Source of the DNA: a virus
Length of the DNA stretch: 20,723 nt
UHGV virus genome: UHGV-0278151
Direction: 5' to 3' (one strand)
The notes below the pieces were generated by a model. The model did not search any database. It was not told the origin of the DNA and worked only from the letters and a program-made list of their open reading frames with translations. Shown here in pieces: positions 17,243 to 17,312 of this stretch (the stretch's first letter is position 1; each line of letters starts with the position of its first letter). A program made the translations under genes and the position numbers.

Positions 17243-17312
17243 TGGAGCGAGCAGCGGGAATCGAACCCGCATCATCAGCTTGGAAGGCTGATGCTCTATC
17301 CGGATGAGCTAG
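17243..17312 (-). tRNA. tRNA-Gly(UCC)-like element, probably a pseudo-tRNA or 3' fragment (5' acceptor strand does not pair)
   Basis: The minus strand reads ...TAGCTCATCCGGATAGAGCA TCAGC CTTCCAA GCTGA TGAT GCGGG TTCGATT CCCGC TGCTCGC T CCA. It has a canonical T-arm and loop, an anticodon stem-loop with U33 and anticodon UCC, and a 3' CCA. The 7 nt upstream of the D-arm (CCGTCAC) are not complementary to the 3' acceptor strand. Confidence 0.5.

Follow-up and report, generated by a model that had tools for sequence, protein, structure and literature searches.

The ileZ-argN-argO genes of 933W-type phages are an example of a tRNA array in a phage late region, and arrays of the form Ile/Met(CAU)-X-Thr(UGU)-Gly(UCC) are found in Escherichia coli prophages. 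Unequal crossing-over or slippage between tandem tRNA genes gives hybrid genes, as in the tandem tyrT duplication of E. coli, and the anticodon stem-loop of a tRNA gene is a classic crossover region for integrases. Stx phages have been reported to carry tRNAs between tR' and stx2AB (PMC7547250), which bears out the original prediction on the DNA studied here, namely that Stx-type phages have tRNA genes at the corresponding position. Our search of the literature on the array described below, on ileZ/argN/argO and on hybrid tRNA genes returned nothing specific.

We analyzed a 20,723-nucleotide stretch of viral DNA (UHGV-0278151; hereafter the window), which is a lambdoid prophage whose late operon lies on the minus strand. 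From the letters alone, a tRNA-Gly(UCC)-like element with an unpairable 5' acceptor strand had been noticed in this region and had been explained either as a decayed phage-borne tRNA or as the relic of an att-type recombination site. We find that the element is very probably neither of these in simple form; it is best described as a hybrid tRNA pseudogene, in which the 5' third of a tRNA-Arg(UCG) is fused to the 3' two-thirds of a tRNA-Gly(UCC).

Results

A tRNA-like element with three complete arms and no acceptor stem

The predicted element, with its intact anticodon arm, T arm and CCA, is present on the minus strand as a 76-nt hybrid pseudo-tRNA at 17243..17318 (CCGTCACTAGCTCATCCGGATAGAGCATCAGCCTTCCAAGCTGATGATGCGGGTTCGATTCCCGCTGCTCGCTCCA), with the CCA encoded at 17245..17243. 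The Rfam tRNA model (RF00005) matches minus-strand positions 17311..17254 with 48.5 bits (E 8.4e-8; gathering score 29), but the match is local, spanning model positions 8-63 only and dropping positions 1-7 and 64-71, which form the acceptor. Read along the minus strand, the layout is CCGTCAC-TA-GCTC-ATCCGGATA-GAGC-A-TCAGC-CTTCCAA-GCTGA-TGAT-GCGGG-TTCGATT-CCCGC-TGCTCGC-T-CCA. By the cmscan alignment and by reading of the sequence, the D stem (4/4), the anticodon stem (5/5) and the T stem (5/5) are fully paired, the anticodon loop is CUUCCAA with anticodon UCC and U33 present, and the T loop is of the GTTCGAxxC type. The acceptor strands CCGTCAC and TGCTCGC form only two of seven pairs (2:71 and 3:70), and the element therefore lacks the canonical 7-bp acceptor stem. 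The identity set of glycyl-tRNA synthetase (GlyRS) comprises G1:C72, C2:G71, G3:C70, U73, C35 and C36. The hybrid has C2:G71, G3:C70, U73, C35 and C36, together with a C-C mismatch at 1:72, and the remainder of the acceptor helix is missing.

At default settings ARAGORN found no tRNA gene across the window. With pseudogene reporting, as had been suggested for this element, the relaxed search (-ps) returned a pseudo tRNA-Gly(tcc) at 17313..17243 with four of seven acceptor pairs and a D stem of 3 bp, in a fold that recruits D-stem bases to serve as an acceptor strand. The original prediction would be at odds with an alternative fold that has an intact acceptor stem, or with the lack of any tRNA-like score. 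Neither was seen: no alternative fold from the relaxed search restored an intact acceptor stem, the best reaching the four pairs just mentioned, and the Rfam score is well above its gathering score. A plus-strand "tRNA-Arg" that ARAGORN reported at -ps60 was discarded as spurious. The 76 nt do not adopt a cloverleaf as their minimum-free-energy fold, which is about as stable as the folds of shuffled sequences (z -1.55). RefSeq leaves the tRNA at this locus unannotated in the three complete genomes that carry it (SE11, EC21Z-048 and GPEC79-13-647). Between 16550 and 18300, a sensitive Rfam scan detected no other tRNA remnant; its matches there were all sub-threshold and at chance level.

The element joins parts of tRNA-Arg and tRNA-Gly

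Related prophage sequences (L002, L003, L004 and L009) have intact tRNAs in the same slot and in the same orientation as the hybrid. In one of these, L003, the Q antiterminator gene and a holin gene enclose an intact Arg(tcg)-Thr(tgt)-Gly(tcc) array, and each of its three tRNAs matches the Rfam tRNA model end to end (positions 1-71; 55.6-65.7 bits). Alignment with these genes establishes both the chimeric composition and the exact junction. Positions 1-35 of the hybrid are identical to the L003 tRNA-Arg (4957-5033, tcg), and over positions 1-26 the hybrid is unlike tRNA-Gly; positions 27-76 equal the prophage tRNA-Gly(UCC) with C69T as the sole difference, both in a four-way alignment and in an ungapped comparison. 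The hybrid can thus be divided, on the minus strand, into an Arg-only part at 17292..17318 that is identical to the L003 tRNA-Arg (acceptor strand CCGTCAC, U8-A9, the D arm GCTC-ATCCGGATA-GAGC and A26); a 9-nt crossover core, TCAGCCTTC, at 17283..17291 in the anticodon stem-loop, which is common to tRNA-Arg(UCG) and tRNA-Gly(UCC); and a Gly-only part at 17243..17282 that matches prophage tRNA-Gly and glyT (C36, the 3' strand of the anticodon stem, the variable loop, the T arm, TGCTCGC, the discriminator T and CCA). Diagnostic bases stand on either side of the core, an Arg-type A26 at 17292 and a Gly-type C36 at 17282.

When compared with the L003 tRNA-Arg copy, the Arg side of the hybrid together with 80 nt upstream shows six mismatches and is free of mismatches over its last 48 nt, and the 49 nt from core to CCA differ from the tRNA-Gly copy at one position. 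Swapping the pairings, with the Arg part set against tRNA-Gly and the Gly part against tRNA-Arg, gives agreement close to random. The acceptor mismatch arises because CCGTCAC fits the Arg strand GTGACGG and not the Gly strand TGCTCGC. The hybrid accordingly departs from tRNA-Arg in having the anticodon UCC rather than UCG and TGCTCGC rather than GTGACGG; relative to the L003 gene it is Gly-derived from base 36 onward and has lost the GTGACGG acceptor strand, while it matches that gene completely or almost completely over positions 1-35 and the upstream flank. The earlier view was confined to the seven 5' nucleotides and understated the part foreign to tRNA-Gly, which is the whole 5' third (positions 1-26), acceptor strand and D arm together.

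The core occupies the 5' half of the anticodon stem-loop in both parental tRNAs, and the two stem-loops (TCAGCCTTCGAAGTTGATG in tRNA-Arg and TCAGCCTTCCAAGCTGATG in tRNA-Gly) are identical at 17 of 19 positions, including the perfect 9-nt block. By sequence mapping, the core occurs once in the window, and the intact L003 cluster has it twice, at a distance of 157 bp. In L003 these arms (about 5006-4988 and 4849-4831) belong to tRNAs for different amino acids, and the 5' strand that they have in common makes a G-U pair in the anticodon stem of tRNA-Arg; the likeness could reflect an earlier gene conversion from the neighboring tRNA-Gly. The one base by which the Gly part departs from its prophage counterpart, T69, also occurs in an otherwise intact prophage tRNA-Gly (L007 5577-5651), where it forms a G4-U69 wobble pair. 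We therefore set aside post-fusion decay as an unnecessary explanation for C69T, and T69 would be a tolerated polymorphism that need not have arisen after the fusion.

As had been predicted, the 3' two-thirds resemble the host gene: K-12 glyT (L008 1174-1248) is identical to the hybrid over positions 27-76 apart from C69T, and it shares the anticodon UCC and an encoded CCA. Full-length homology of the hybrid to tRNA-Gly(UCC) or glyT is absent. Positions 1-26 are unrelated to glyT, and the context is that of a prophage and not of the thrU-tyrU-glyT-thrT-tufB operon. Alignment to glyT and to phage tRNA clusters, the comparison that had been suggested, thus upholds the glycine identity for positions 27-76 and assigns positions 1-26 to tRNA-Arg instead.

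Flanking sequence and late-region context

The two flanks follow the two halves of the element. The upstream flank (17319..17591, minus strand) is homologous by BLAST to the intergenic region between Q and tRNA-Arg in L003, and its portion at 17319-17418 is specific to Arg-type clusters. Window positions 17286-17591 show 95.8% identity to two genomes, with the match ending inside the annotated tRNA-Arg, and a BLAST comparison of 17256-17591 with L003 gives 94.4%. The downstream flank (16700..17242, minus strand) is homologous by BLAST to the sequence that follows the intact tRNA-Gly of Thr-Gly clusters; window positions 16700-17291 are about 89.5-90.4% identical to many E. coli prophages, and the match ends within the annotated tRNA-Gly. 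Downstream homology stops at the crossover core (17291) each time, and upstream homology ends there too. Just past the CCA, the window sequence (ACATTTGAAATACGCC...) matches the phage tRNA-Gly flank of L002 and L004 (GCATTTGAAA...).

On the minus strand the gene order is Q, a MazF-type toxin gene, a promoter-like site, hairpins, the hybrid, TerB, DUF3927, two holins and an M15 endolysin. Q (18260-18955) was assigned from collinearity with SE11, window ORFs and Pfam, the PemK/MazF-type toxin ORF (17665-18144) from Pfam PF02452 (E 7.6e-14) and the TerB-domain ORF (16152-16577) from Pfam PF05099 (E 1.7e-6); the DUF3927 ORF lies at 16003-16155 and the two holins at 15258-15957, all on the minus strand. 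A consensus scan found a site with TTGACA, a 17-nt spacer and GATACT (17601..17629, minus strand; 10/12 consensus positions), which is a candidate late promoter of the PR' kind, and two terminator-like hairpins (17511..17489 and 17469..17454, minus strand), candidates for tR'-type terminators that are conserved in L003 upstream of tRNA-Arg. The hybrid therefore sits, in late-gene orientation, between the Q/PR'/tR' region and the lysis cassette, the position of a late-region tRNA array. It shares this slot, this orientation and homologous flanks with the arrays of lambdoid and Stx phages, and the Ile/Met(CAU)-X-Thr(UGU)-Gly(UCC) arrays of E. coli prophages are of the same kind. What differs is that the array here has collapsed to one non-cloverleaf fusion, with no intact tRNA in the window.

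Several features of this region lie outside the tRNA question. The MazF-type toxin ORF, between Q and the late-promoter-like site, is bracketed by a 25-nt direct repeat (92%) whose copies at 17447-17471 and 18171-18195, 724 bp apart, carry the terminator hairpin; ORF and repeats look like an inserted cargo cassette, and in SE11 no antitoxin gene is annotated beside this ORF. The TerB-domain and DUF3927 ORFs are further late-region cargo between the tRNA slot and the holins. Both copies of the terminator hairpin (17448-17507 and 18172-18244, minus strand) also give sub-threshold Rfam matches to isrK/isrJ, Hfq-binding small RNAs of Salmonella prophages, at 17.9-21.3 bits (E 0.2-0.5), far below the gathering scores, and are compatible with a short leader RNA of the PR'-tR' type. 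Just 3' of tRNA-Gly, relatives are annotated with a "hypothetical protein" (L002 6121-6432) that has no intact counterpart at 16820-17150 (minus strand) of the window, where only a 49-aa ORF (17000-17149) is present. A terminator-like hairpin falls inside the frame annotated in L002, and this frame may not be a genuine gene.

Intact arrays in related prophages

Many E. coli prophages carry tRNA-Thr(UGU) and tRNA-Gly(UCC) between Q-type genes and the lysis genes, and at least 80% of the intact three-tRNA array was found in 598 of 5426 complete E. coli genomes. An intact tRNA-Arg(UCG) of the hybrid's type is rare, occurring in only two complete E. coli genomes in the searches run; a scan of GTDB representative genomes for it gave no matches. 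IMG/VR likewise yielded only a hybrid carrier (L005) when searched for an intact tRNA-Arg of this sequence or for another context of the window's Gly downstream flank. The ancestral state thus appears to rest on few intact examples of tRNA-Arg(UCG). The slot just upstream of Thr-Gly varies among prophages. It holds Arg(UCG) in L003 (4957-5033), whereas the L009 occupant (2501-2577) is a homologous "Lys(UUU)" in which position 33 is C and the T stem contains an A-C mismatch; PGAP did not annotate the same homologue in L010 (2503-2579). Anticodon switching or decay may be under way in this slot.

The junction is inherited by several mosaic prophages

The exact 76-nt hybrid occurs in six of the sequences compared (L001, L005, L011, L012, L013 and L014). 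Over 601 nt that include it, SE11, EC21Z-048, GPEC79-13-647, one IMG/VR contig and two ENA metagenome contigs are exactly identical; EC21Z-048 is of human origin from China, and GPEC79-13-647 comes from a chicken in the USA. Because several carriers have an identical junction and context, an assembly artefact is excluded, and inheritance of the junction by several prophages is clear. Carriers nevertheless make up only 3 of the 5426 complete E. coli genomes, and a scan of GTDB representative genomes for the junction returned no matches.

None of the complete E. coli genomes searched is identical to the window as a whole. The best match, EC21Z-048, has 97.8% identity over 96% of the window, and window positions 16700-17900 are 100% identical to SE11, EC21Z-048 and GPEC79-13-647. 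By BLAST, 13771-19299 is collinear with the SE11 (L001) prophage that adjoins rspB, at 99.3%; a counterpart of the head-gene region 6514-13770 was not found in that prophage. Early regions and some head genes differ among the carrier prophages, a pattern that, as judged from these comparisons, shows strong module exchange among prophages integrated beside rspB. The distribution points to one event, which would since have been inherited with a Q-MazF-hybrid-TerB-holin module that moves among mosaic prophages.

Origin of the hybrid and competing explanations

We propose that an ancestral prophage carried tRNA-Arg(UCG), tRNA-Thr(UGU) and tRNA-Gly(UCC) as an array, in the direction of the late transcript, between Q/PR'/tR' and the lysis genes. 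Recombination inside TCAGCCTTC, most likely by replication slippage or by short-homology recombination between the direct repeats 157 bp apart, would have linked the first 26 positions of tRNA-Arg to tRNA-Gly from position 36 through 76, removing the 3' part of Arg, the entire Thr gene and the 5' part of Gly. An array of the parental type is present in a relative, L003; from it we infer both the recombination mechanism and an ancestor with all three tRNA genes. The earlier description of a decayed phage-borne tRNA was right in that a phage tRNA remnant lies between Q and the lysis genes, but the element is a fusion of two genes: its first 35 nt, together with some 270 nt of upstream sequence, match tRNA-Arg(UCG).

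Decay of a phage tRNA-Gly(UCC) by point mutations in its 5' acceptor strand, the first of the earlier explanations taken literally, fits the Gly origin of the anticodon arm, T arm, 3' strand and CCA as well as the label that the relaxed ARAGORN search gives the element. We nonetheless consider it highly improbable and have ruled it out by alignment: positions 1-26 and more than 100 nt upstream agree wholly or almost wholly with tRNA-Arg(UCG) and the sequence that flanks it, and bear no relation to the 5' part of tRNA-Gly, and the whole tRNA-Thr gene that lies between the two in relatives is gone. The suggestion of an att-type relic, in which the element is a duplicate of the 3' part of glyT left by integration into a tRNA-Gly gene, fares no better. 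It draws on the start of the Gly-derived part in the anticodon stem-loop and on its near-identity to host glyT; like att sites made of tRNA 3' fragments, the hybrid has a partial tRNA running from the anticodon stem-loop to CCA. Yet such a site is at variance with the flanks and with the lack of both an integrase and a partner repeat. The sequence after the CCA is the flank of a phage tRNA-Gly and not the host glyT-thrT spacer; 5' of the junction stands another tRNA gene with its own phage flank, and both flanks are phage-internal. No second copy of the segment was found in the window; a matching full tRNA elsewhere in the genome had been named as what would define an att core. The integrase is not adjacent; in the complete-genome carriers it lies about 16 kb away, at the far prophage end by rspB and not at glyT. 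We have therefore rejected this explanation as well, and regard its likelihood as negligible.

A closer competitor of the within-array deletion keeps the same junction and reads it as the mosaic joint of two different lambdoid phages or prophages, an L003-like one (PR'-tR'-Arg) and an L004-like one (Thr-Gly-TerB-holins), with the short similarity of the Arg and Gly anticodon arms as the crossover point. The left flank is indeed of the L003 type (94-96%) and the right flank of the L002/L004 type (about 90-92%). Where L004 has 1.76 kb with a hypothetical gene, a DNA methyltransferase gene, tRNA-Thr and the 5' portion of tRNA-Gly, the window has 127 bp of Arg-type sequence instead, and every hybrid carrier is strongly mosaic. 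An intact three-tRNA array with both window-type flanks was not found in complete E. coli genomes, IMG/VR or GTDB representatives, which favors such a joint, and we infer the direct parent of the hybrid rather than observe it. On the other hand, a deletion between repeats 157 bp apart on one molecule requires fewer events, the flanks reach only about 90-96% identity with the proposed donors so that neither donor type is pinned down, and a scan of IMG/VR for the reciprocal Gly/Arg hybrid gave no matches. The two routes would leave the same product and are equally compatible with it; we favor deletion within the array as the simplest and hold the joint between two phages to be possible, though the less probable origin.

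Deletion within an array resembles the fusions known from tandem tRNA genes, in which direct-oriented neighbors recombine at a short identical block and the interval is lost. The present case differs from these in that the partners belong to the Arg and Gly families, that the block is 9 identical nt (within 17 of 19), and that the product is structurally incompatible.

Discussion

The fusion cleanly accounts for the way in which an element with three perfect tRNA arms escapes tRNA finders and RefSeq annotation. On established tRNA biology, maturation by RNase P and charging are not expected, because the acceptor helix is lacking; the hybrid should neither fold as a cloverleaf nor be processed or aminoacylated. 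It is probably still transcribed within the late operon and is most likely a nonfunctional, inert passenger scar.

We also considered that the hybrid is kept as a functional, noncanonical tRNA-like RNA. An uncharged fusion RNA from the late operon could titrate a nuclease or a modification enzyme that targets tRNAs, in the manner of a decoy or sponge, or could provide the late transcript with a processing signal. If the sponge reading were true, the anticodon stem-loop and T arm displayed by the RNA would copy those of host tRNA-Gly(UCC) exactly. Its three perfect arms, the retained GlyRS identity elements (C2:G71, G3:C70, U73, C35 and C36), its unchanged state in at least six sequences and the adjoining gene for a MazF-type RNase toxin are in keeping with such a role. 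The identical 601-nt context in all carriers, however, speaks for recent common descent and not for selection, there is no acceptor stem, shuffled sequences fold just as stably, and the three carriers among 5426 complete genomes are few. We accordingly give a role as a decoy, sponge or processing signal only a slim chance, and return to the hybrid as a passenger scar.

GGA/GGG, ACA/ACG and CGA/CGG are the codons that the three lost tRNAs would have served. Their frequencies in the phage ORFs of the window are 11.2/17.2, 10.9/21.0 and 5.2/15.3 per thousand, respectively, somewhat above E. coli averages and most clearly so for CGG. Several intact-looking prophages tolerate the loss of the three tRNAs, which may cost them a little translational efficiency.

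The hybrid is another case of a known type of event and opens no new biological question. It shows that a short anticodon-arm identity between unrelated tRNAs suffices to collapse a phage tRNA array. If a milder reading is true, near-identical anticodon arms of different isoacceptors would be a recurrent hotspot that remodels such arrays and makes mosaic joints. The junction itself is a handy lineage marker for the Q-MazF-TerB-holin module in differently mosaic prophages adjacent to rspB.
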